A stretch of 64,000 nt of DNA from Azolla caroliniana (Eukaryota; Plantae; Polypodiophyta): contig JBHGNT010000012.1 in the NCBI GenBank assembly GCA_043228905.1, positions 12,896,001 through 12,960,000 of the forward strand, given 5' to 3'. Below, piece after piece: positions 3,442 to 41,362 of the stretch. Position 1 is the first letter of the stretch. Each line of letters starts with the position of its first letter. A program made the translations under genes and the position numbers. The notes under the pieces are model-generated. The model did no database searches, was not told the DNA's origin, and saw only the letters and a list, made by a program, of their open reading frames with translations.

Positions 3442-4101
3442 AGTAGACTACAAGAGCCTCTAAGTGACCAAAGGACATCGCGGCCAAGTATGAAACAAGA
3501 CAAAGGAAAGGCCAAAATGCTTGAGTACGAAGACTCATATAGAAACGAATCGGACCACTCACCCGACAGTGAGCATGGTGGACTGGATGTGCCCGTCATG
3601 AGGGCACCAAGAGCACCACGTCGCTCCACTCGAGAGAAGAACATAGTCACCAGATTTAGCTATAATGACTACATGCATATCATTATGCATTCATGATGAA
3701 GGTGGTGACAGTCCGAGAACCAAAAACCTTCTCTAAAACCACGAATGACCCCATATGGTTTGAAGTGATGAATAAGGAGATGCAAGCACTCTCCAAGAAT
3801 GAGACATGGGATCTCATCCCTTCGTCACACCACCAAAGTGCAATTGGATGTCGGTGGATCGTCAAAGTAAAACACAACATCAACGATATTGTCAATCGGT
3901 AGAAGGCTTGACTTGTGGCAAAGGGCTATGCACAGACCCATGGTGTTGATTATCAAGAGACCTTTGCCCCGGTGGCAAAGATGATTACAATTCGAACTGT
4001 GATCGCGCTTGCAACAGCAAAAGGGTGGCACCTCCACCAAATGGACATGAAGAACGCCTTCCTCCAAGGCAACCTAGAAGAGGAGGTGTACATGATACAA
4101 C
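3442..4101 (+). pseudogene. pol: H1: old host Copia pol, segment 1 (INT-RT linker, RT N-terminus)
   Basis: EPKTF...EMQALSKNETWDL...[21 protein letters not shown]...LEEEVYMIQ. The reading continues at 12774 (QPPGF...LYGLK). Confidence 0.9.
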
Positions 4102-4453
4102 TGTTGTTGAGAATGGCTTCACCCCCCTCCCAACGGGGTTAATGTGTGAGAGAAAGAGAGAAGAAAAGAAAATAGAGAATGACACAAAATGAGAGGGGAA
4201 AAAATGTATTCCATTATGCCCCATGGGTGGGGTTTATATAGTACAAGAGATAACCGTTACAAATAAAGAATGAGACAAGGTAACCGTTACATTACTTACC
4301 CACGTTCTCACCTTTGTACACATGCACACAAATGTGCATGTGTTTATACACATACACATACTCATCCTCACACACTCATTCATATTATACATACACATCA
4401 ACCACATCATTACACATACCCTTATGCCTCCCCGTATATTCTTATAGGTAACA
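4102..4453 (-). repeat. E2 3' LTR
   Basis: Homologous to 12430-12768 and bounded by the TSD. Confidence 0.9.
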
Positions 4454-4455
4454 CA

Positions 4456-4472
4456 TGGCACGCTTGTGGGAC
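4456..4472 (+). promoter_or_regulatory. Inverted tRNA-Arg-type PBS (TGGCACGCTTGTGGGAC) at the position where E2's PPT should be
   Basis: Lies 2 nt from the LTR end. Resembles the Athila/Tat tRNA-Arg(UCU) PBS TGGCACGCCCAGTGGGAC and shares TGGCACGCTTG with E5's PBS. Confidence 0.75.
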
Positions 4473-6550
4473 AGTGCATTGCACGGTGAACCCACTCGCA
4501 ATGGCAACTCTTCTCGACCGGAACTCCATCGGTCGTCTCAACGATCGGAAAATCCCTCGACCAGATCACTGCTCTACAATCAATATCTTTGATCAAAGCT
4601 TTGCTTGACTCGAACCTTCTCGTTCGGTCAGCACAATGCACGATTGGATCATACACCAATCAGTTAGTTCACTACGGCACGGGTCGTGAAATCGTGTTGT
4701 GTGTTTATGTATTCCTTCTTTCATCATGTGAGTTGTGTTTTTGTAATTCCATGATTTGTACCCCTTAATTTTTAAAAATTTTGTTTTTACCCTCAAAATA
4801 TTGAAATTTTCCTTGAGCTTATGAAATTCTCCTCCACTGCCCTCTGGTTCTTAAAATTCGATTGCGTGCGTTCACATTATTGTAATTTTTATCTAGCCCT
4901 CAAGCTTTTCTTTTACATCTTTGTCTTTTTCTTCCTTTCACTTCTTCCTTTTTGTTTTCTTCTTTGTCTCTGTCTTCTTCCTTTCTTTCTCTTTTCTGCT
5001 GTTGTTGCTTCCTTCTCTTCTTTTCTATCTAGTTGCTTCTATGGCTTCTCCTCCTTCTTCTTCTCTATCGTTGTCCTTTTCTTCTTTCTTGATTCTCTTG
5101 GTCTTTACTTTATATGTTGAGTGGAGCACTTTTGTTTGTCATCTGTCTCGACCGGCTGTCTGTTTGCCGGCTATCGGACCGCCTATCCGGCTGATTGTCG
5201 ACTGTCGGTTTTTCGGTCGTCTCTCAGTCTGTTTGGCGCTCTGTCTGTCGATCGTTGTTCTTGACCCGTCCGGCTCCATCCGCTGGCCACCGGCTCTATC
5301 AGGCGCCATCTACAGTTGTTGGATGCTGGCTATCTGTCCATGTGTAGACCTTTTTCATTCGTCGGTTGTATCTCGATCGTCGCTGGTTGCCAGTTTGTCT
5401 GTCTGACTATTTGCGCCGGCTGACCGTGGTCATCTTTCCACCCGCTGTCGAATGTCTGCCATGTCCGCCTGTCAGCCATCTATCTGTGGCTGTCTATGTC
5501 CACTGGTCAGACCGTCTGTTTGACTATCACTGTCGCCATCGTTGTCGCCGTCGTCCGGTCGGCCGTGGCGTCTGCCAGAAGACCGTCTACGCATGGTCGG
5601 CTTCGAGAGCTATTCTCCCGATCCTGCAGCATACCTTGATGCATTCGGGGATAGCAAGAAGAAGCAATGCGTCTGTAGGTAGCTTCTCTTCGTCTGATCA
5701 TCATCACCACCACTGATGCCATTATCTTGTGTGTTCTCACTAACTTCCCCGAAAACTTGTTTTGTATTACTTTCAATGTGCAATCCAAGAATACAGACGA
5801 AATGATTACATGCCATCTTCACATTAGTTCAGAGTCCTTTATCCTCACCACCAAGCATTAATATGGTGGGCACACCTTGTGGAAGATCTCTGACTCGAAT
5901 GACATGAGGACCAATTGCAGTGGCACCCACAACTATCCACCCATCAACTTCTTGCAAGATCAAAGCTCCATAAATTTCAAAGCCCCTGAAGTAGCCTTAC
6001 TAACAACTGCACTTGATGGTGTTGAATTCTTAGTGCATACTATAACCCCTTTTGCTTCCAAGAAGTACGTTGAGCGAAGAACAACACAGACATTTTGGGG
6101 ATCTTGCTCCTCATCTAAAACCACCCAAAATGGTGGTTTTTCACTCTCTTGATCGCATACACCTTGAAGGTGTATTAGAATATAAGTTAAATAATATTAT
6201 TAATAATAAATATAATATAACTGCCCTCCCGGTGATAACACCAAGAAAGGTTTCTAACTGCCTTATATGGCTATAAATAGGTCTCTAAGACCTATAGTTG
6301 TAATAGGACGATTTCAATACAGATTTACTTTACTTTACTTTCTCCCTCTCTCTCTCTCTCTCTGTGTGTCTCTCTCTCTCTTGCCTCTTCTCTTTTCATC
6401 TCTTCTCAACATGGTATCAGAGCGTTAGGCTCTCTCCAACCACCGTCCTCTTTCCTTTCTTTCTTCACAGCCAGTGCTCTTGCCACCACCGTCCTCTTCC
6501 CTTTCTTCCTTCACAGCCAGTGCTCTTACCATTAGTTGATCCGGACAACT

Positions 6551-9500
6551 ATGGCACAACATGCACATGGCACACCTAATTCGTCCATATCGACACCCAG
6601 CCCATCAACCCCAATACCGGGTTTTTCAACAACGCAAGGCACTACTCCGCTCGTCCCAACCACTACGAGAAGTTACAACCTCGACAAACTCACGGGCCCC
6701 AACTACCTTACATGGGCCACATGGATGACATTGATGCTCAAACGATCGGACCTGTGGAACGTGGTAAGTGGCACAACCCAACCCACTGAAACCAATAACA
6801 CCGAGTGGACGGCAAAAGATCTCCAAGCCCAAACCGAACTCATGTTCCACCTTGGAGACCCGCAAGTGCAAATGGTCCGACGTTGCGACACCTCAGCGGA
6901 AATTTGGAAAGTACTCCGAAGCACTTATCATCATGAAGATTTGATCACCCAAGTCGCATCACTCAAAAAGCTCCTAATTTCCTCCGTCACAGAAAACCAA
7001 GAAATCAACAAATTTCTTGATGAATGGCGCATCTTACTCGACAATGCCCTACTCTCGGGACTACAATTAGATTCAAATCTACAAGCAATGTTACTCCTAG
7101 CAGCATTGTCCTCCTCTTGGCGACCATTTATAACCACTCAAGCATCAATGACGGGCCTCACCGTTGAATCTCTTATGGCACGCATCCGCCAAGAAGAGAT
7201 CATGCGAAATGGCGCTCATCACTCAAATGCAACATTTCCAACACCGTCGACGCAATATGTGCAAAGACAACCTAACTTCAAAAGGGGACCTCCCTTTCGA
7301 AGGAACAACAACAACATGCGACCCGCCACCGCTTCAACAAAAGTTTGCACATATTGTGGACGCCATGGACATCTTGAACGTGAGTGCCGCACCAAGCGTC
7401 GTGAACAACTGAACCAATCACAACAACAACGTCAACAGCCACATGGACGACATCCTAGAGCACACCTCCAACAACTAAATGTGCCCGAAGTTGGCCAATA
7501 TGGTATGGAATCATTACAACTATTTACATCATTACTAAATAGTTCCAATTGTCTTTCCCACACCATAGATATATCTGAATGGCTACTCGACACTGGTGCA
7601 ACTCACCACATGACGCCACAAAAGCATTGGCTCCGCGACTACAAACACCTCTCAAGTACCATGCGAGTTTACCTCGGGAACAACCAATTCCTCACTGCCA
7701 TCGGTGTCGGGAACCTTCACATCACCCTACCAAGTGGAGTAAACGTCAACATCTACAATGTATATCACATTCCGGGTCTTAGTCGAAATATACTTTCGGT
7801 TACAACGGCTACCTCAACTGGATCTTCCATTGAGTTCTTCCATGACTCATGTATTATTCACTTCAAGCTCCCTAATGGACAATTTGAAATTATAAAAATA
7901 CCTCAGAAGGACCGTTTGTATCCATTAGCTATATCTATGTCTAATCCTCACTCTGTAATTGGTCACACCTCTATCCATTCTCTTCACATGGCTAAAGCCG
8001 TGTCCACCCTTATGTGGCATTATAGGTTCGGTCACATAAATAGTGTCACACTACATCGCATGGTGAAAGATAAGCTTTGTGTTGGCTTACCACTCTATCT
8101 AAACCCAATAGAATTGTGTGAAGGTTGCATCTTAGGAAAATCTAGCCACAAAAGTCACCAAAAATCACTCAACAAATCCACACAATTGAACCAACTAGTA
8201 CATAGTGACCTTTGTGGACCCATGGAATCAAGCTCACTCACGGGCTCCCATTATTTTCTCACTTTCATTGATGATTTTAGCAGGTATACGACCATATACT
8301 TCCTCAAGAAAAAGTCTGAAGTGCTCACACACTTCAAAGAGCATTGCAACCTCGTAGTCCGTCAACATGATCTTCCAATCCAAGCACTTCACTCCGACAA
8401 TGGCGGAGAATATGGCTCAAATGCATTCGAGGCATTTTGTAAAGACGAGGGCATCCAACAACAATTTACCGTTCCATACACGCCACAACAAAATGGTGTG
8501 TCCGAACGGAAGAATCGAACCCTTGTTGGCGCTGCTAGAGCCATGCTCCTTACGGCGGGACTACCAAAAACCTATTGGGAAGAGGCGGTCGCGACAGCGT
8601 GCTATGTCCAAAATCGGGTTCCGCATGCAAACGACCCCAAAACTACACCATATTTTCATTGGTTTGGCAAGCCACCCAATGTTCAACATCTTCGAATCTT
8701 TGGATGTGTAGCATACCCGGTGAAAGCTTTGGACTTGAGAAAGAAGTTGGATCCAACAAGCACGCGAATGATCTTTGTGGGCTATGGTGACCGATTTGGC
8801 GTCAAAGCATACAGATTGTATGATCCGGAGCAACGAAAATTTCACCTCGCACACTCAGTATACTTCAATGAAACCTCTCTCCTTAGCCCCCAACAAGAAA
8901 TCCACAACCCCATAACACCATTAACCCTACCATCCACCACACCAACCATTCCACTCTCTACCCCAAAAAGACACACTCAAGTTGAATGGGAAGAAGTCTC
9001 ACAACTCGCCCCACTCCCACCACAAACTCTCACTCCAATTGTCCCAACAACCACAACACAACCAACGTTACATGCCCCCCCCACACCTACAACACCAAAA
9101 ACCCCTCCTTGCTCCCTCGGACAGAAAACCAAATCCCTCCTATTCCCTATGCCTACAAATTCATCATTCCCTAGTGAACCCCTCCACTCATTTAAGAATA
9201 CCACCACTACCAAACAACCAAACCCTAGTAGACCACTACATACAATTATACCAATAGAATCTACCTATCAACCTTCTATCCTAGGACCAATCCCCAAGGC
9301 GTGTGCTCCCAAACCTTCGAAAGTCCGATCTTTGAAGGAGATCTACGAACAAACAAACCTCACTTCTAGTATATTAGAAAAGCATCCATCACTAGACTCC
9401 ACTATATTTGATCCCTTAGATATATTATATCAACAAATGATCCAAGATCCATCCATCGATCGTGATCTTCAATTACTAAATCTTGAATCTTTTGATGATG

Positions 9501-10780
9501 TCAATATACAGGAAGCTCTCTCAGGAACTGAAGCCACCTCATGGCGTGAAGCCATGGCCTCGGAGTACCAATCTCTCATGGAGAATGGTACATGGCAACT
9601 AGTGCCACAACCGCCGGATCGAAAACTGGTATCATGCAAATGGCTACTCCGAAAGAAGTTTAATGCGGATGGCTCGATCTCGCGCTACAAAGCTCGACTT
9701 GTAGAGCGAGGATTTTCACAAGTACCCGGTATGGACTACAACGAGACTTTTTCTCTCGTCCTCCGGATGACCTCATTCCGAGCATTACTCGCCACTGCCG
9801 CACAACTTCATCTCCTCGTCCATCAAATGGATGTTCGAACAGCATTTCTACATGGAAACCTACATGAAGAGATCTACATGGAGCAACCACCCGGTTATAT
9901 ATCTCAAGATTACCCAAACTATGTATGTAAATTAAACAAATCACTATACGGCCTAAAACAATCCCCACGACAATGGTATGAAAGATTTAAGTCATGTATG
10001 TCAAACCTAGGATATGTTCGTTTTCAATCCGACCCTAATGTATATAGCCGAAATGGCCCTAATGTAATACTCCTCCTAGCCATTTATGTAGATGATATCC
10101 TCATCCTATCCAACTCTGAAAACACACTATGTAAAGCAAAGAGTGAACTCCATGCATCATTCTCGATGCAAGATATGGGAGCCCTCCATTATTGCCTAGG
10201 TATCCAAGTTATTCAAGATCCCTCCCAAGGCATCATCCAAATAAACCAAAAATCCTACATTGAGTCACTCCTTAAGAAGTACAACATGTCCAAATGTAAA
10301 GGTATCGCAACTCCCCTACCAATCTCCCTTAAAACAAAAACATCAACCTCATCAATGACTCAAACATCGGATATGGTGGCGTTTCCATATGCCAACATCC
10401 TTGGTGGAATTAGATACCTCGTCACATGTACAAGACCCGACATATGCTTTGCGGCACCAAGTCCAATTCACACCCAACACTTGAAGCGCCTGTTAAGGTA
10501 CCTTCAAGAAACTAAGGACTTCGGCATCACCTACTCGGCATGTCAACCATTACCGACACCATACCTAACTTGCTACTCGGATGCCGATTGGGGGGGTGAT
10601 GAAGACACATTACAATCGACATCAGGCTACGTCTACCTCCTATCAAATGGTGCCATTTCATGGCAGAGCAAAAGGCAACAAAGAGTCACACTCTCATCAA
10701 CGGAAGCAGAATATGTGGCAATGACATTGGCACTTAAAGAAGGAATTTGGCTAAAAGACTTCTTGAAGGAAACAACTCTA
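6551..10780 (+). CDS. gag-pol: E3 gag-pol polyprotein (gag, CCHC knuckle, protease, integrase, RT, RNase H N-part), interrupted by a solo LTR
   Basis: Continuous ORF with CTYCGRHGHLEREC, WLLDTGATHHM, WHYRFGH..C..C, HSDLCGP/SDNGGE/NGVSERKNR, YVDD and YSDADWGGD. First ATG at 6551. Confidence 0.93.
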
Positions 10781-11422
10781 TGTTGAACGCAGTGATCGGC
10801 CACCACCGAGGAATAGGATAAACTCACAGAAAACAGGAAATACAGAATGCACGAAGACAATAGAGAGAAGAGTACACGGGATGTTTTACGTGGAAAACCC
10901 TAAATGGGAAAAACCACGGGAGTCCTCAAACTCCAACTATCACTATAAACAGAGATGTACAATGGTGAAGCTACAAGGCAACAACCTTGAGCTCACTGTC
11001 TTCGCCACAGGCGGCGGTAATACACAGAGGCCACGACCTCTTCGTCTCTCTCTCTCTCTCTCTCTCTCTCGGCTGTTCTCACTTCGCTCCCTCTCAGTGG
11101 AAAACAGAAAATGAGCAACAACATTGAAACTGTTTGCCCTAAGTCATATTTATACATATATGACTTTCGAGCTATTTACAAATATAGCCTCAAGGGCCCT
11201 GGGCAAACATATTCACAAATATGTCCCCGCATCCGGATCTCTCTCCGGGTACATTCGTCATCCGGCTCCGTAGCCGGGGTCTTCATCATCCGGCTCCGTA
11301 GCCGGGTCTTCATCATCCGGCTCCGTAGCCGGGGTCTTCATCATCCGGCTCCGTAGCCGGGGTCTTCATTCCCGATTCCCGGACATCCGACCATCCCATC
11401 CGCAGGGACCGTAATCCCAACA
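10781..11422 (-). mobile_element. Solo LTR of a Tork/Tnt1-like Copia family related to E6, inserted in E3 RNase H
   Basis: TGTTG...CAACA ends with perfect TSD CTCTA (10776-10780/11423-11427). Shares ACGTGGAAAACCCT...GGAAAAACCACGGGAG with the E6 LTRs. Confidence 0.93.
11259..11369. repeat. Four tandem 27-28 bp palindromic units in U3 of the solo LTR
   Basis: CATCCGGCTCCGTAGCCGGGGTCTTCAT x4. Confidence 0.9.
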
Positions 11423-11427
11423 CTCTA

Positions 11428-11679
11428 TTCCCCGATCATCCACTTCTCCTTCAATGTGATAACATGTCAGCCATCATGCTCGCAAAAAATCTCAAACATT
11501 CCGAGCTAACAAAGCACATTGCCATGAAGCTACAATTTACGAGGGAACTACTACATGAAGGCAATATTCAAATAAGTCATGTGCGCACCGAACAACAATG
11601 GGCAGACTTCTTAACGAAGTCCACACAAAAATCAAAACATTACGAAAGTTGTAATAAACTAGGATTAAAAGCTACTTAG
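11428..11679 (+). pseudogene. pol: C-terminal RNase H of E3 pol, separated by the solo LTR
   Basis: FPDHPLLLQCDNMSAIMLAKN...TKHI...QWADFLTK continues the reading across the TSD. Confidence 0.9.
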
Positions 11680-12414
11680 TTAATATTATCTAACTTAGGG
11701 GGGTGTATTAGAATATAAGTTAAATAATATTATTAATAATAAATATAATATAACTGCCCTCCCGGTGATAACACCAAGAAAGGTTTCTAACTGCCTTATA
11801 TGGCTATAAATAGGTCTCTAAGACCTATAGTTGTAATAGGACGATTTCAATACAGATTTACTTTACTTTACTTTCTCCCTCTCTCTCTCTGTGTCTCTCT
11901 CTCTCTTGCCTCTTCTCTTTTCATCTCTTCTCAACAGAAGGTGGCTTTTCCTCGTGTGAAGGAGAAGAAGACACGGGTAGAGATGTTCTCTCCCAGTCCC
12001 CATTGTCGTCCATCTCTGAGCTTAAGACCTTCCACCACTACCTGGCCCTCAAGTAACACCCATTTCTCAAATCATATCATCATCATGGAGAGGTATGGAT
12101 AGATATATTTACCATGAGAGGAACTCATATTTTCTCTCTTTCTCTCCGAAGAAATGATTAAAACATCCACAACATATTCTCAAAACCACACTAACATCGA
12201 GACATACAATCACGTCACACAAAGAGGTAGAAAGAGAGATTTCGTGTCAAGGGAATAATGTTGATTTCTCCATCATAGGCTGGCTCCCACACTAAGAGTC
12301 CATGCACAACACAATACTCTCTACACAAACATTATCAGACACGTACAGAGAGGGAGAGATAAAGATGAGTGATGGAGGGAGAGAGCGACCTCTTCTCAAG
12401 GGAGGTTGGCCGTT

Positions 12415-12425
12415 CGGGCGTGCCA
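12415..12425 (-). promoter_or_regulatory. E2 canonical PBS, tRNA-Arg type (TGGCACGCCCG)
   Basis: The minus strand reads LTR-CTTT-TGGCACGCCCG, the same spacer and start as the PBS of Gypsy E5. Confidence 0.8.
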
Positions 12426-12429
12426 AAAG

Positions 12430-12768
12430 TGTTGTTGGGGTGGGGGGTGAAGTCATTCTAGGCTTCACCCCCCTCCCAAGGGGGTTATGTGTGAGAGAAA
12501 GAGAGAAGTAAAGAAAATAGAGAATGACACAAAATGAGAGGGGAAAAAATGTATTCCACTATGCCCCATGGGTGGGGTTTATATAGTACAAGTCGTAACT
12601 GTTACATTACTTACCCACTTTCTCACCTTTGTACACATGCACACAAATGTGCATGTGTTTATACACATACACATACTAATCCTCACACACCCATTCATAT
12701 TATACATACACAACAACCACATCATTACACATACCCTTATGCCTCCTCGTATATTCTTACGGGTAACA
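12430..12768 (-). repeat. E2 5' LTR
   Basis: Homologous to 4102-4453 and followed by TSD ACAAC. Confidence 0.9.
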
Positions 12769-12773
12769 ACAAC

Positions 12774-27926: not shown

Positions 27927-27942
27927 ATCACCAAGCGTGCCA
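27927..27942 (-). promoter_or_regulatory. E5 PBS, tRNA-Arg type
   Basis: LTR-CTTT-TGGCACGCTTGGTGAT, directly upstream of gag. Confidence 0.82.
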
Positions 27943-27946
27943 AAAG

Positions 27947-28382
27947 TGTTGCCGATTAGGAACACGGTCCGCGGTTAGTCCTTCAACCTAGATCTCCAAG
28001 TGGGTGTGGACCAACGAATAGGCGTCTAAACGTAATGCGTAGGGGAATGTTCCCTATAACCTATCAGCATATAAGGGAGACGACTACAACCGAATCCTTA
28101 GCAAGGGTTACACTTACATTCTTACACTTTCAGGTCTTCAAGACAGACACTATGGATTAGCCGTAACTATACACAAAGAATCAGAGAAGATAGAATTCTA
28201 TTATGAGACGTTTCTTACATTCCCAAAATTACACGCTCCCTCTATCAGAGGTTTTCTGCCCATTATATACACAGGGTCTATTTAGCCATTCACTCTTCCT
28301 GTGTGAACCGTTACATGCGTTATGATCTTATATTATTTCTTATTCCTACGCTCTTGTCCGTCGGTTACTATTCTGGCAGACA
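27947..28382 (-). repeat. E5 5' LTR (right end 28382 or 28385)
   Basis: TG/CA ends. E4 pre-integrase coding sequence resumes immediately after. Confidence 0.8.
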
Positions 28383-29905
28383 ACAAGTTGGCAGGCTTCA
28401 CATACTTGGGCCTTCCGGCCGCTGAACTTCGGTAAACCGAAAACAACTTGTTTCGTTTCCAGGTCTTGAAGCCTCTAGTAATTGACGTGGCCTATCCGCT
28501 TGTGTCACAGGTCGATCTCCGATTCGACCTTCTGTCGTTTTGCAAACAGAGCGGTGCCGACGTCATTGGTGTCAAGGATAAACATCCTCCTGTCTCTGTG
28601 CCCTTGCGCAATAATTTGGCCCTCTTCCTCGATGAAGCACCCGAGGTGCGTAAACCGCACTTGCATCCCCTGGTCGACTATCTATCCGACCGACTCCAGG
28701 TTCTTCGTGATTGTCGGAACGTGTAATATGTTCATCAACTTCCCCTTCTGTCCGACATGGCTCAAAGGGACTTCTCCGACATGCACGATTGGGTGAGGAG
28801 TGTCGTCTCCAGTTTCGACTACTCTTGGTTGATCCGGTTTTTCCAAAAAGGAGAACCACTCTTTGTCGCTCGTCATGTGGTTCGACGTACCGGAGTCAAC
28901 ATACCAGACTTCCTCCGATTTGGAAGTGGTCTTCTTCATCGAGTTCGCCTCGTGCTTCATCACCAAGGCTGGCCCGTTACCGTTCTTGGATCCTCCCGAT
29001 TCCTTCGCGTAGTGCGAGCTTTGCCGGCCATCCTTGCCGGATCCGGATTTATCTGAATCGGCTCGTTTTCTCCAGCACTCGCTTTCTCTATGGCCCTTTT
29101 TGCCACAATACCAGCATTTCGTAGCACATTTGTCTTTCCGGCCTCCGGCACGGCCTTGACTCCCCCTACCTGTGGAAGTCTTGGAGCTGCTGTCAGCACG
29201 TTCTCTATGCCTTCGTTCCTGCTCTCGCCGGCCGCCTCCATTGCGTGCTGACCCGTCTCGTCCGCCACGCCCACTGAACCGATCCGCCTCCATGTATAGC
29301 ATCCGGTTGTCAGTGGGTGCACTAGTTGACGCACCGGCGTGGTTCTCCCATACAAGGAGCATCGATTGTAAGTCAAAAAATGACGGCGTATTCTCCCTTG
29401 TACACACTGCTGTTCGGAATGCTCTGAACTTAGACGCCAGGCCCCCAAGACAGACTTGTACCATCTCGTCTTCCTCTACGGTAACGTTGATAGAGGCAAG
29501 CAAGTCACAGATCTCTTTGATTTGGACCGTGTAATCCGCCATCGACATGTCCTTCTGTCGGACATTGCTCAACTCCTGTCGGAGTTGCAGCTTCCGGGTT
29601 GTGTTGCTCACGGCGAAAACCTTCTTCAGGTTCCCCCAAGCCTCCTTCAACGTCTTGGCGTCTTGGATGTGGCTCAGTAGCTGGTCTTCGACACTGGACG
29701 CGGAGCAGTACATTACTCTGCTTGCCGATTGTTCCCACACTGGGAAGTCCTTATGTGCTGCATCAGGTGTTGTTTCGTTGGCTCCTTCAATGAAACTCTA
29801 GTAGCCATGCCCAAGCAGGTACTGGTGCATCTTATACGACCAAGATGCATAACTGGATATGTCGTGTTTCTCCACAGGGAGCGAGCTACCCATCCCTCTA
29901 TCCAT
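28383..29905 (-). pseudogene. gag: E4 gag, protease and pre-integrase
   Basis: NYASWSYKMHQYL, CWYCGKKGHRESEC, WYVDSGTSNHM. Confidence 0.92.
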
Positions 29906-31692: not shown

Positions 31693-32009
31693 ATACTAAA
31701 TAACAATAATAGTTAATCAGCCTACTAATCGACTAATCGACTCCAGTGTCGACTGTCTAGTTGGCCTGACTAGTCAGCCTTATCGTCGACCCTCCGATCG
31801 GCCGGACTAGTCAGTCTTGTCTTCGACTTGGATCGTCTGATGTCAACTCCCCCTTGTCTTCGACTATCGGCTCTCAGCCCGACCAATCGGCTATTCCTTG
31901 TCTTCAACTATCGGCTCTTGGCCCGAACAATCAGCTACTCCTTATCCTCGATTGTCGGCTCTCGGTCCGCCCAACCGGCTCCTCCCATAGGAAGGACATA
32001 TTCCGAACA

Positions 32010-33919
32010 ATTCGGACTATCACTGGACAGTGCACGATAAGGATCCAAAATACTTCGAAGAGGCCGTTGAAATTGTTCTTCGTTATCAACGCACTTCAAA
32101 GAAGGACCATGGACTAAGTAGTTGCAAATAGTTGGGAAACGCAAGACACCCAACGAATTCATGGATCGCAATTATGAGCGACAAAATCATTTTCGCATGT
32201 TTTGCAAAAAGGTGGCTTCACCCCCCTCCCAAGGGGGATTATGTTAAAGAGAGAGAGAAGGAGAGTGAAAATAAAAAATGACACCAAATGACAGGGAAAA
32301 AGTTATATTCGTTATATGCCCCATAAGGGGTTTATATAGTACATGAGGTAACCGTTACAAAAGAATGAGACAAGCAGGGAGTTACATTACTAACCCACAC
32401 TCTCACTTTTGTACACATGCACACAAATGTGCATGTGTACATACACATACTCATCCTCACACACTCATACACATTACGCATACACAACAACAACTTTATA
32501 GTGTTCCACCTCCCCGTACAACTCCTACGGGTAAGATTCTTTCCGTTACTATGTATTGGGACCCAATGATTTAGTATGTGAAAACGGGTATATCAATGGA
32601 TCTTCCGTACAATTCTTATTTGATTCGGGAAGCTCACACAACTTTGTGAATGATCGTTTGGTTCAGATATGGGGAATCCAACCCACCGTAAGTGATCACA
32701 CCTATAAGGTGCACTTGGTTGATGGAAGAGTACAATACATCACCGGGATGATTCATTCATGAAGAATTTCAATTGATACTTATATAAAGGAACTAGATTT
32801 CCATGTAATGAATCTTTGTACCACTGATGTAATAGTGGGTTATCCCTGGTTTTTTACTAAAAACTCTTCTTTATCTATTGATTGGGTTCATCATTCAATT
32901 ACTTCTGTACTGAACGGTTGTACTCATTTTATTCAATGTGTAAATAAACAATCTCTTTCGATTGTTTCCTATCCATCAATAACCGAGTTGTCTTGTTCCT
33001 CTTTATTTTATTGTCTACTTGATCCGAACATTCATGTTTATAATATCAATAATGTCTCGGGTCAATTATCATATTTTACGAAACTTGATCTCCGTACGGG
33101 CTACCATCAAATTCGTATAAGTGGGGAAGATGTTCCTAAAACGACATTTCATATGCGCTATGGCCATTACACGGTTTAGGTCATGCCTTTCGGTTTGACC
33201 AATGCTCCAACCACATTTCAACAAGAAATGAATGACATCTTCCGTGAACAACTTGGAAAATTTGTCCTTATTTTCTTGGATGATATTCTAGATTATAGTC
33301 GTACATTAGAAGAACATGTTAAACATGTCCTCTTTGTTTTACAAACCTTGCATGACAAACAATTCTACACAAAGATCTCAAAATGCGAGTTCTTCAGGAA
33401 ATCAATTACTTATATTGGACATCTCATAACCGAACAAGGAGTTGAAATTGATCTTTCTTGTATCGATAAAGTCAAACTTTGGCCCACTCTTCCAAATATT
33501 CAAGAAGTTCGATCATTCCTAGGGTTTGTCGAGGTTTTCAAAAATCTCATTGGAATTATTCCCAATTGATGACGTCGTTTACTGATTTTCTCACAAGTCA
33601 AATGGGTAAGTCTACAAAACCTATTGTATGAAATGCTACACTAGACCTCGCCTTTAAGGAACTCAAGGACCTGGTATGCAAGGCTCCTTCGCTTCTTTTA
33701 CCAGATCCTTCAAAACATTTTCAGGTTGAAACTGACGCATGTGATTATGCTTTAGGTGTTGTATTCTATCAAGATGGTCAACCAATAACATTTGACAGTA
33801 CGAAACTTGATTCTATTGACTATCGGTATATCGTGCAAGAAAAGGAATTATTTGAAGTTATTCATGGACTAAAGTCATGGTGCCATTATGTTTATGGAAA
33901 TCATTTTGTGGTAACTATG
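32010..33919 (+). pseudogene. gag-pol: Chromovirus-type Gypsy remnant (gag C-term, PR, partial RT, RNase H)
   Basis: [43 protein letters not shown]. Same family as 33920-38074. Confidence 0.88.
32211..32535 (-). repeat. Truncated solo LTR related to E2 LTRs
   Basis: GCTTCACCCCCCTCCCAAGGGGG...TTTATATAGTAC...TGCACACAAATGTGCATG...TACGGGTAAG. No TSD, and flanking gag sequence is deleted. Confidence 0.82.
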
Positions 33920-33984: not shown

Positions 33985-35960
33985 CCTCTTTAAAACATTG
34001 CACTCTTGCAATGGAAAGTTAGGGAAGTTAGTTCTGAGAGTATTCTCGTGTTCCCATGTGGCATCTTTTATTTATTTTTCCATCCCTTTTATTTTAAATT
34101 CTCGGATTTCTTTAGTATGTAATTTTTTTGTTTTAACATCGAGAATTCTTTCTAGTACATGTGGCTTAGAAGATAAATCTTCAGAAGTAACCAGAGTTTC
34201 AGTTGTAATTGTATTGTCGCCAGAACCTAGAAGTTCTTTTAGACGACTCACATGAAAGACTGGATGAATTCCAACACCATCGGGAAGAGCGAGACGATAG
34301 GCTGATGACCCAATGCATTTGAGGACTGTAAAAGGTCCACAAAACCGTGGGGCTAACTTAGCGCACTTACCTGTAGACAATGTCTTAGAATTGTGAGGTA
34401 CACGTAAAAATACCTTCGGTCCAAGGTTGAATACACGAGGTTGCCTATGATGATCGGCATAAAAACGCACTCTATCTTGAGCTGTTTTTATATTATCTCA
34501 TGGAATATGCAACATATCTTGCTTATCCCGAAGAAAGTTTTGCGTACTTCGCAACTCATCATTATGTATATTAACATCAATCGGGGCTCGTGGCTGAAAA
34601 CCATACATCAACATAAAAGATGAGTGCAATCGTTCAGTACAAATGTAATTGAATGATGAACCAAATCAATAGATAAAGAAGAGTTTTTATTATAAAACCA
34701 GGGATAACCCAGTATTACATCGGTGGTCCAAAGATTCATTACATGGAAATCTACTTCCTCTATATAAGTATCAATAGAAATTACTAATGAATGAATCGCC
34801 CCGTTGATGTATTGTACTCTTCCATCAGCCAAGTGCACCGTATAGGTGTGATCATTTACGGTGGGTTGGATTCCCCATAATTGACAAAGTTGTGTGAGCT
34901 TCCTGAATCAAATAAAAATTGTACGGGAGATCCATTGATATAACCATTTGCATGTAGTAAATCATTGGGATCCAATACATAGTGAGGGAATGAACATTGG
35001 CAATTACTTAAATGATGTGTATAGACCTGAAGGACATTAGGAATCTGACCTTTATGGTCTGCAGCTTTAGCTTTGTTGTCGTGCTCTTTCCGTTGGAGCT
35101 TTCGACATTGCTCTTTTGTATGATCCTTCTTTTTGTAGAATACGCAAAAAGGATGTTGTTGCTTACAATCGCGGTCCATGAATTCGTTGGGTGTCTTGCG
35201 TTTCCCAACGAATTGCGACTGCATAGTCCCGGGGGCTTTGTTGGGTTTGTTGTGGTCCTTCTTCGAAGTGCATTGATAACGAAGAACTATTTCAATGGCC
35301 TCTTCGAAGGATTTTGGATCCTTATCATGCACTATCCAGTGATAGTCTGAATTGGGGATGCCATTGATAGAACAAGCTATTAACCAATTGTCCCCTTCTA
35401 GACCCGATTTTTGGATTTGGGTTCTAGCATGGTGGACATAGTCTTCTAGCGAAGAAAATTTCCGCCTAGAGAGGTTCATTAAAGCTTGTGCTGCCTCGGT
35501 TCGAGAGGGAGGTTGCATAAATTGGCCCTTGAAAACTGTGACAAAATCTGTCCAGGTATCGGGCAATTTCCCCAAAGTCTGGATCCCACGCCACCAGGCG
35601 GCGACCATACCCCCTAGTTCTCGGCCGACATATGCAATCTTCGTACTATCTTGCGTGGGATAGAGCTCAAAATGAGACTCCCATCAGCCTAGCCACATGC
35701 AAATTACTTCTTCGGTTCTTTCCTTTTTTTCTCCCATAAATGGCTTAACGACAAACGATGGTTCACCCTATCACTCATCAAGTCTATTAGTCTCACGTTG
35801 TAGACTAATGACACGTGCCTTGAGAGCACTTTGAGATTGCCAAAGTTCGGTCATCTATTGAGCGGTGAAACTAATGTATTGGGTTATTTGCGAAAAATAC
35901 ATCTCAATGGACATTTGTCAAGGAGGATTGCCTTGAGTTTCATCCGCTTGAGCGGATGAC
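33985..35960 (-). pseudogene. gag-pol: gag-PR fused by deletion to INT C-terminus/chromodomain
   Basis: ORFs 34856-35608, 34608-34838 and 34072-34470. RT, RNase H and INT core are absent. Confidence 0.85.
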
Positions 35961-41004: not shown

Positions 41005-41362
41005 GAAGGGGCTCCACCCTCCTCCCAAGGGGGTTGAGCGTGAGGGGAAGAGAGACAGAGTGAGGGAGAGAGGGAGAGAGAGAGAGAGAGAGAGAATTGA
41101 GAGCCAAAACTTCTACTACTTTCATGTCCCCTTGGGTGGGGTTATATAAGTACATTACATGAGGGTTACGAATCAAGAACGTACAATGGGGTTTGTAGGT
41201 TAGTTACATAACCTTGTAACAACTTAGACCCACTTTACCATATAAATATATTCACACTTATGTGCATATTTGCACATACACTTACACATGAATTTTAATA
41301 CAAAGACTTCACTTATACACTCACTCATACAATTACAATCCCACGACCACCGTAATTTTTCG
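41005..41362 (-). repeat. Diverged LTR of the E2-like family
   Basis: GCTCCACCCTCCTCCCAAGGGGGTT, GA-rich run, GGGTGGGGTTATATAAGTAC and TGTGCATATTTGCACA, as in the E2 LTRs. Confidence 0.65.

Follow-up and report, generated by a model that had tools for sequence, protein, structure and literature searches.

A tRNA-sense cassette in place of the polypurine tract in an Azolla Ty3/gypsy lineage, and a host tRNA as its probable plus-strand primer

The window analyzed here is a stretch of 64,000 nucleotides (nt) from Azolla caroliniana (contig JBHGNT010000012.1, positions 12,896,001 to 12,960,000), and it contains E2, a non-autonomous long terminal repeat (LTR) element at positions 4102-12768. E2 splits the reverse transcriptase (RT) codons of a copia element, the frame of which reads EEVYMIQ up to the insertion and PPGF after it. 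The original prediction, drawn from the letters of the window alone, had described E2 as flanked by the target-site duplication (TSD) ACAAC and as having an LTR promoter along the minus strand. Both statements hold, because the TSD is present at each end and the TATA sequence CTATATAAAC lies on the minus strand of both LTRs, which are 87% identical over 339 aligned positions. Without a nested copia insertion the element measures ~2.9 kb, its own interior amounts to ~2.2 kb of non-coding DNA, and there is no gag-pol open reading frame (ORF). Having LTRs, primer sites, and a TSD without gag-pol, it is what we take to be a non-autonomous element resembling a large retrotransposon derivative (LARD) or a terminal-repeat retrotransposon in miniature (TRIM).

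Two junctions define the interior of E2. One, CTTT-TGGCACGCCCG (minus strand, 12429-12415), contains the Arg-type primer-binding site (PBS) originally predicted at 12415-12425, and this matches the 3′ end of the host tRNA-Arg(UCU) over 11 nt. The other is CA-TGGCACGCTTGTGGGAC (plus strand, 4454-4472). At the related locus L096 (G000:C17:16753246-16758438), which has E2-type LTRs, remnants of gag, protease, RT, and RNase H begin after CTTT-TGGCACGC. The minus-strand TATA and the position of gag in L096 therefore identify the right LTR as the 5′ LTR and the first junction (site 1) as the PBS, and they place the second (site 2) where a polypurine tract (PPT) would be expected. The opposite orientation, with 4456 as the true PBS, is ruled out by the same two features. 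L096 is itself a chimera, in which E2-type LTRs and 3′ end enclose the deleted gag-pol of a coding family, referred to here as the helper family, that has an unrelated LTR of its own; this suggests co-packaging and recombination between the two families. Relatives of E2 range from 2.7 to 4.5 kb with varying cargo, and among 13 paired copies nine have a perfect TSD, two have one mismatch, and two have none. Long ORFs in some of these relatives were considered as E2's own gag-pol and rejected, being nested copia or long interspersed nuclear element (LINE) insertions. A G/C-rich hairpin (GGGGGGTGAAG...CTTCACCCCCC) lies near the U5 end of the E2 LTR (12436-12470 and 4114-4135), one arm of it having been lost in the left LTR.

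Immediately ahead of the 3′ LTR, the transcript strand had been predicted to carry a sense copy of a tRNA 3′ end with CCA and no purine run. This is borne out (the last 20 nt contain nine purines), and the copy extends further than was first described, to 4495, and lacks one C. Site 2 as a whole is a cassette of ~40 nt in which tRNA positions 49-58 are followed by a hairpin of 13-14 nt and then by positions 59-76 less one C, missing at position 65/66. It includes the CCA that tRNA genes lack. Coordinates are collected in Table 1.

Table 1. Features of E2 and of its surroundings in the 64,000-nt window
Feature	Positions	Strand	Remarks
TSD ACAAC, left copy	4097-4101	.	Repeat at 12769-12773; interrupts copia RT codons
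E2 3′ LTR (U3 end 4453, U5 end 4102; TATA 4232-4241)	4102-4453	-	TATA direction; gag strand in relative L096
TG spacer, 2 nt, between CCA and U3	4454-4455	-	Putative start of plus-strand DNA; in relatives, retained tRNA ends are linked to U3 by the family spacer
Site 2, proximal part: sense copy of tRNA-Arg(UCU) 59-76 with CCA, minus one C	4456-4472	-	PBS if read on minus-strand DNA
Hairpin insert, 13 nt (stem 4 bp, loop 3-4 nt), at the tRNA 58/59 boundary	4473-4485	-	
Site 2, distal part: copy of tRNA T-arm 49-58	4486-4495	-	8/10 match in E2
E2 internal non-coding region	4496-6165	-	~300 nt adjoining site 2 conserved in family
Captured, frameshifted host SpoU rRNA methylase fragment in E2	5832-6169	-	PF00588, E 2.7e-7 for 5963-6169
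Nested Ty1/copia, not part of E2 (LTRs 6171-6411 and 11704-11936, Met PBS 6412, gag-pol 6536-10786)	6171-11936	+	Normal PPT; TSD GAAGG
Solo LTR of a third family, within nested copia	10781-11422	.	TSD CTCTA
E2 leader, non-coding	11942-12414	-	
Site 1: canonical PBS, 11-nt match to tRNA-Arg(UCU) 3′ end	12415-12425	-	CTTT spacer 12426-12429
E2 5′ LTR (TATA 12577-12586)	12430-12768	-	
TSD ACAAC, right copy	12769-12773	.	
Coding relative (helper family), 5′ LTR	27946-28422	-	PBS at 27942; same window

The whole host genome (523 Mb) was searched with each E2 junction, giving 768 and 626 candidates, of which 40 were scored in each case, and the same junction was present in all 30 loci retrieved per search. 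Because those loci had been chosen by the junction, two further selections were made blind to the 3′ end. The first consisted of 20 E2 copies from the 5′-junction list that were not already paired: a 3′ LTR lay within ~9.5 kb in 11, all 11 carried site 2 (one with a 4-nt deletion), and the remaining nine showed no 3′ LTR in range. The second consisted of 20 coding copies retrieved via a gag search, of which 13 did not show the junction between interior and 3′ LTR and seven did; site 2 was present in 7/7, adjoining a different LTR and mostly with a GG spacer. The original prediction had allowed that other copies might possess a normal PPT, and had left it to the coding relatives to reveal either a PPT or the same tRNA-sense site. 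No normal PPT was found at any of these 11 and seven visible junctions, and a one-off rearrangement at 4454 is ruled out by the family-wide occurrence of the junction.

A wider pattern (17-mer, 2 nt, TGT) gave 1,630 genome matches, spread over many LTR types, versus 0 for the reversed control. A forward TATA lies downstream in 29 of the first 30, which places those 29 at U3. The distance to U3 is 2 nt in the members examined and 4 nt in one family, and site 2 is kept across unrelated LTRs. Public metagenome assemblies added 80 stretches, corresponding to 70 distinct site 2 junctions in plant DNA, all from one assembly series, with LTRs that are 67-96% identical to the collected loci or have no match among them; the distal part, although outside the search pattern, was seen by eye in most of these rows (no count was made). 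Replacement of the PPT by a tRNA cassette is thus lineage-wide.

The original prediction also depended on a matching host tRNA, and matching tRNA-Arg(TCT) genes are present: they end in GTCCCAC-CGG/CAG/CAA-GCGTG (47 pattern matches with undeleted spacing), and ARAGORN called tRNA-Arg(TCT) in 11 of 20 loci. No gene in the host genome matched the same pattern with the deleted spacing of site 2. Tandem clusters of tRNA-Arg(TCT)-like genes occur at G000:C11:693747-703402, C22:1431239-1504874, and C4:19509177-19570214; several of the clustered genes have GCGCTTG/CAAGCGT or CAGGCGT acceptor stems, an isodecoder that matches the PBS of the helper family. Site 2 likewise shows isodecoder-like variation (CTG, TTG, ATG), which could be due to deamination and was not used as evidence.

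The hairpin lies between tRNA positions 58 and 59. Methylation of A58 to 1-methyladenosine (m1A58) stops RT on a tRNA template. In an alignment of 25 of 79 cassettes, picked to span families, together with one tRNA gene row, 93.9% of cells in the 4-bp stem were paired, with one pair being GC in 15 rows and AU in 10. The pairing score was reached by 0/500 shuffles, a control that ignores relatedness.

These features point to the first of three options offered in the original prediction. We consider it quite probable, from the sequences of the junctions, that host tRNA-Arg(UCU) anneals to minus-strand DNA at site 2 and primes the plus strand, such that tRNA would prime both strands. Synthesis would begin in the usual way, with a tRNA at the 5′ PBS priming the minus strand and RNase H removing the RNA template from the DNA product. 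The acceptor and T stems of tRNA-Arg(UCU) would then unfold onto the minus-strand DNA and form ~17 + 8 bp, leaving the DNA hairpin as a loop at the position of m1A58, and RT would extend from CCA across the spacer into U3-R-U5. Finally, RNase H would take off the tRNA and integrase would trim the spacer. E2 itself would be mobilized in trans, borrowing Gag and Pol from coding relatives. Should removal fail, the finishing minus strand would copy the tRNA, usually up to position 59. A primer left in place should thus be traceable as true tRNA sequence on the 5′ LTR, at the outer end of its U3.

The search took the undeleted 18-mer within 1-5 nt of TGTT, so that deleted, element-type outer ends fell outside it. 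It returned 82 matches, most of them at U5 ends, which is the known product of the minus-strand primer. Six independent joins of tRNA lie at U3 (L249/L253, L188/L255, L181/L256, L193/L257, L185, and L207). The first four are whole elements in which an undeleted, hairpin-free tRNA end, differing from the element's own internal site, abuts the outer U3 of the 5′ LTR through the family spacer, which is AG, TATG, TATG, and TG, respectively. L249/L253, with a TSD of AATAG and LTRs that are 99.8-100% identical, has, twice in tandem, an LTR-LTR junction that reads U5-CAGAAGAATTT-T, then GTCCCACCGGGCGTGCCA, then AG-U3. Its own site 2 is GGCCCACGTGCGTGCCA-AG after a GGAC/GTCC hairpin, from which the outer copy in L249 (18 nt of tRNA) differs by three substitutions and the C. 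The layout of U5-spacer-T, 18-nt tRNA, and AG-U3 is that of a 2-LTR-circle-type junction.

In L188/L255, integrase DNA of another family is followed by the 18-mer, TATG, the 5′ LTR, and a TGGCGACCAC PBS, the element's own site 2 being TTCCCACGGGCGTGCCA-TATG; L181/L256 is laid out in the same way, except that its tRNA copy is long. In L193/L257, 165 nt of U3 precede an 18-mer of a different isodecoder, TG, and the 5′ LTR. The two remaining cases are less complete: L185 joins U5, a long tRNA copy, GG, and U3, but no more than 86 nt of U3 are present (92%), and L207 comprises three tandem copies with a 55-nt tRNA copy ahead of the LTR in an ambiguous context. Three outer-end copies reach 30-45 nt further into the tRNA, and in those cases the template was therefore the whole tRNA, beyond an 18-nt fragment. 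Three of the four whole elements have the TGGCGACCAC PBS, presumably of the tRNA-Arg(UCG) type, and the tRNA copy at U3 there is therefore not the minus-strand primer. A control search for CCA with a non-T at position 72, placed ahead of U3 in the two largest LTR types, gave seven matches in which no other tRNA end was recognized by eye. The tRNA-spacer-U3 joins are what a plus-strand primer that escaped removal would be expected to leave behind. Comparable events are described for HIV-1, in which PPT or PBS sequence is kept at 2-LTR-circle junctions when RNase H cleaves incorrectly, and U5 retains the final ribonucleotide of the tRNA (PMC5618025); we match the extra T in L249 to the latter.

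Several further candidates were set aside. Clean LTR-LTR junctions gave three matches, including two TGG/CCA fusions that are equally explained by microhomology deletion; in L183 and L184 (undeleted 18-mer, TG, TGTT) the LTR end could not be assigned; and L190 and L213 are internal sites with one extra base. A variant end, GTCCCACCCGGCGTG, occurs in ~9 tRNA-derived junctions (e.g. L182, L188, and L189), and no tRNA gene with that end was found under the gene pattern; it is possibly an RT misreading of modified G67 or else an unfound isodecoder.

The alternative that survives best, although we regard it as unlikely, is that site 2 is a tRNA-mimicking PPT, the element's own RNA surviving RNase H in a hybrid with DNA, being cut after CCA just as a junction of tRNA and DNA would be, and priming the plus strand without a tRNA, with the joins arising from a later switch onto tRNA. 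Its position and start point would be identical to those of a tRNA primer, PPT sequences vary widely between elements (PMC3185511), and the short GCCA or CCA remnants seen at U3 in L272 and L252 are compatible with either primer. Against it, the outer-end copies match the host tRNA instead of the element's own site (the three substitutions and the C of L249, the other isodecoder of L193), they are free of the hairpin, and three of them run on into the tRNA. Predicted folding speaks on both sides. Cofolding of the tRNA with the minus-strand cassette gives free-energy differences (ddG) of -19.9 kcal/mol for E2 and -22.6 kcal/mol for another family. In the predicted structure the two arms are base-paired while the hairpin loops out. 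Pairing of the tRNA with the sense RNA cassette is weak (ddG -4.9 kcal/mol).

Several considerations weigh against priming by a host tRNA. The cofolding energies derive from RNA parameters and an unmodified tRNA, and the sense RNA cassette by itself forms a T-arm-like stem together with the hairpin (-15.9 kcal/mol), the fold to be expected of an RNA mimic. Sliding the hairpin window by +3 leaves 72.7% of cells paired, positions 54-58 of the tRNA are mismatched in some families, and the fixed one-C deletion at site 2 is unexplained. The independent tRNA-U3 joins number only six, all of them aberrant products, and a template switch to the homologous tRNA, starting from an RNA primer that was retained in part, could have produced them. 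The case as a whole is built on genome sequence and predicted folding.

A plus-strand tRNA primer need not be the same tRNA that primes the minus strand, and site 1 bears on two further alternatives. The PBS matches host tRNA-Arg(TCT) over 11 nt in E2 and 14 nt in the helper family. L235, an intact member of a young family (LTRs 100% identical, TSD GACAC, a 1744-amino acid (aa) gag-pol, and a 964-aa extra ORF), combines a TGGCGACCAC PBS with an Arg(UCU)-type site 2, an arrangement found in several families. Self-priming or circularization of the RNA was another of the options originally put forward. The tRNA copy near the 3′ end would pair with the 5′ PBS, within one RNA or between two partners, and E2 does have 8 complementary nt (predicted ddG -6.5 kcal/mol). 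It is nevertheless very improbable. Site 2 is unchanged in the families with a TGGCGACCAC PBS. At positions 9-11 the sites of paired copies disagree, with site 1 mostly CCG and site 2 CTG or TTG in E2, and site 1 TTG in 7/7 and site 2 CTG in 6/7 in the helper family. Pairing of the sites is therefore excluded as a general mechanism, and self-priming in that role is largely refuted. Moreover, whole tRNA copies at 5′ junctions, such as that at the U5 end in L077, show that a real tRNA primes the minus strand. A lone LTR at L068 (G000:C3:22147008), whose U5 end carries 41 nt of copied tRNA and which has an apparent TSD of its own (ATAAT), looks like an integrated strong-stop product.

The remaining original option, a symmetric element in which transcripts of either strand are copied and each site serves as a PBS, draws on the fact that both sites face inward and match tRNA-Arg. 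We rate it as scarcely credible: TATA occurs in one direction only, gag-pol invariably begins after site 1, and the one-C deletion is kept in 1,630 copies of site 2 versus a handful of undeleted ones, whereas site 1 of the helper family (TTG in 25/28, CCG in 3/28) varies as isodecoders do. A caveat to this last argument, that site 2 is not rewritten from tRNA, is that in Ty3 the tRNA sequence is not passed on to the PBS (PMC5371799). Least probable of all is that the cassette, which in L253 lies just behind the stop codon of the extra 3′ ORF and which folds as RNA, has some other job (packaging, tRNA-fragment decoy, polyadenylation or translation signal) with the plus strand primed elsewhere, given the fixed 2-nt gap to U3, the lack of a PPT, and the tRNA-spacer-U3 joins at outer ends.

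Other features of the window are of less direct concern. The nested copia element accounts for 5.8 kb of the E2 span, has a 1416-aa ORF, and has AGGGGGG preceding its 3′ LTR. Within the SpoU-related fragment, 5832-5996 gave no Pfam match; the region 5832-6169 can be aligned in the close relatives L086, L088, L082, and L085, with other cargo in the remaining family members. For the helper-family copy, no 3′ LTR was found within the window. Two further truncated LTRs related to E2, at 32213-32533 (82%) and 41010-41339 (69%), have no site 2 at the junction. A long inverted repeat (32008-32930 and 34617-35354, arms 80-92% complementary) adjoins a Ty3-capsid ORF at 34856-35683.

The coding relatives L235, L253, and L147 have the order gag-protease-RT-RNase H-integrase between their LTRs, as in Ty3/gypsy elements. 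The lineage also has a tRNA PBS and 5-bp integrase-type TSDs; the ~10-purine PPT before the 3′ LTR is lacking at the visible junctions. A Pfam scan of the L235 and L253 polyproteins found neither a second, archaeal-type RNase H nor a chromodomain. Coding elements are 8.5-10.3 kb long and carry a long sense ORF after pol (964 aa in L235, 877 aa in L253). These extra ORFs (L235:695-3589 on the minus strand, L253:5822-8455 on the plus strand) end close to site 2 and have no Pfam match above the cut-off, with one weak leucine-zipper match. An RT-RNase H tree of 32 rows (28 of 120 homologues, picked by name and rank, with no REXdb reference lineages) groups three site 2 coding families, the coding copy in the window, and three other proteins with 100/100 support, among fern and liverwort homologues and apart from the sampled seed-plant homologues.

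In its broadest form the reading, which we think likely from the genomic evidence, is that a whole Ty3/gypsy clade of seed-free plants has abandoned the PPT and uses host tRNAs, often two different Arg tRNAs, to prime both strands, with a split PBS whose hairpin is looped out at m1A58 and unremoved plus-strand primers fossilized in the genome. A full-text literature search, with subscription papers mostly outside it and supplements such as REXdb tables excluded, found no paper describing tRNA-primed plus-strand synthesis. Priming by the PPT is treated as a defining step for LTR retroelements and retroviruses (PMC7879559, PMC5371799). If our reading is correct, that step is replaceable, and in a natural and abundant lineage that was recently active, since LTR pairs of young members are 99.8-100% identical. 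The cassette would then be a short, testable substrate for primer selection and removal by RT and RNase H, and its presence would explain why PPT-based annotation tools would miss or mis-orient such elements.

The lineage shares TG..CA LTR ends, a 5-bp TSD, a tRNA PBS, and gene order with canonical Ty3/gypsy elements (PMC7879559, PMC5371799), which have a PPT where a tRNA-sense cassette is found here, with tRNA retained at U3 ends. Of the Athila/Tat assignment in the original prediction, the Athila part stands in some respects: a non-Met tRNA PBS, no additional RNase H, no chromodomain, and a long extra ORF after pol are shared with Athila (Neumann et al. 2019, PMC6317226), whereas Brassicaceae members have a conserved PPT-3′ LTR junction (ATHILAfinder, 10.64898/2026.03.20.713144) that the site 2 lineage lacks. 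The coding members are thus Athila-like in make-up, the tree containing no labeled Athila references. The Tat part does not stand, as TatI-III, Ogre, and Retand have the additional RNase H (PMC6317226). Phygy and Selgy are short, with a polyprotein that nearly fills the interior (PMC6317226), whereas site 2 elements are longer and have the extra ORF.

Other elements also depart from the usual primers. In the self-priming Tf1/Sushi, Tcn1, and TAR elements it is the minus-strand primer that is altered (PMC6317226), and here it would be that of the plus strand; the chromoviruses Tf1 and Tcn1 lack a tRNA PBS and have a chromodomain, whereas the site 2 lineage has a tRNA PBS with tRNA copies at 5′ junctions. 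The bipartite or second tRNA sites of Ty3, Ty1, and Drosophila Gypsy (PMC5371799, PMC1635307) are likewise tRNA-related, near the 3′ end, and pair into the T arm. However, they are complementary to the tRNA on genomic RNA and aid minus-strand priming, whereas site 2 RNA carries the tRNA's own sense, which leaves the minus-strand DNA as the only partner for the tRNA, and there is no PPT. A parallel to the joins is found in the 2-LTR circles of HIV-1 (PMC5618025), where unremoved primers are likewise copied into the joints and so disclose the primer of each strand, the insert on the U3 side being the PPT in the virus and a tRNA 3′ end in these elements.

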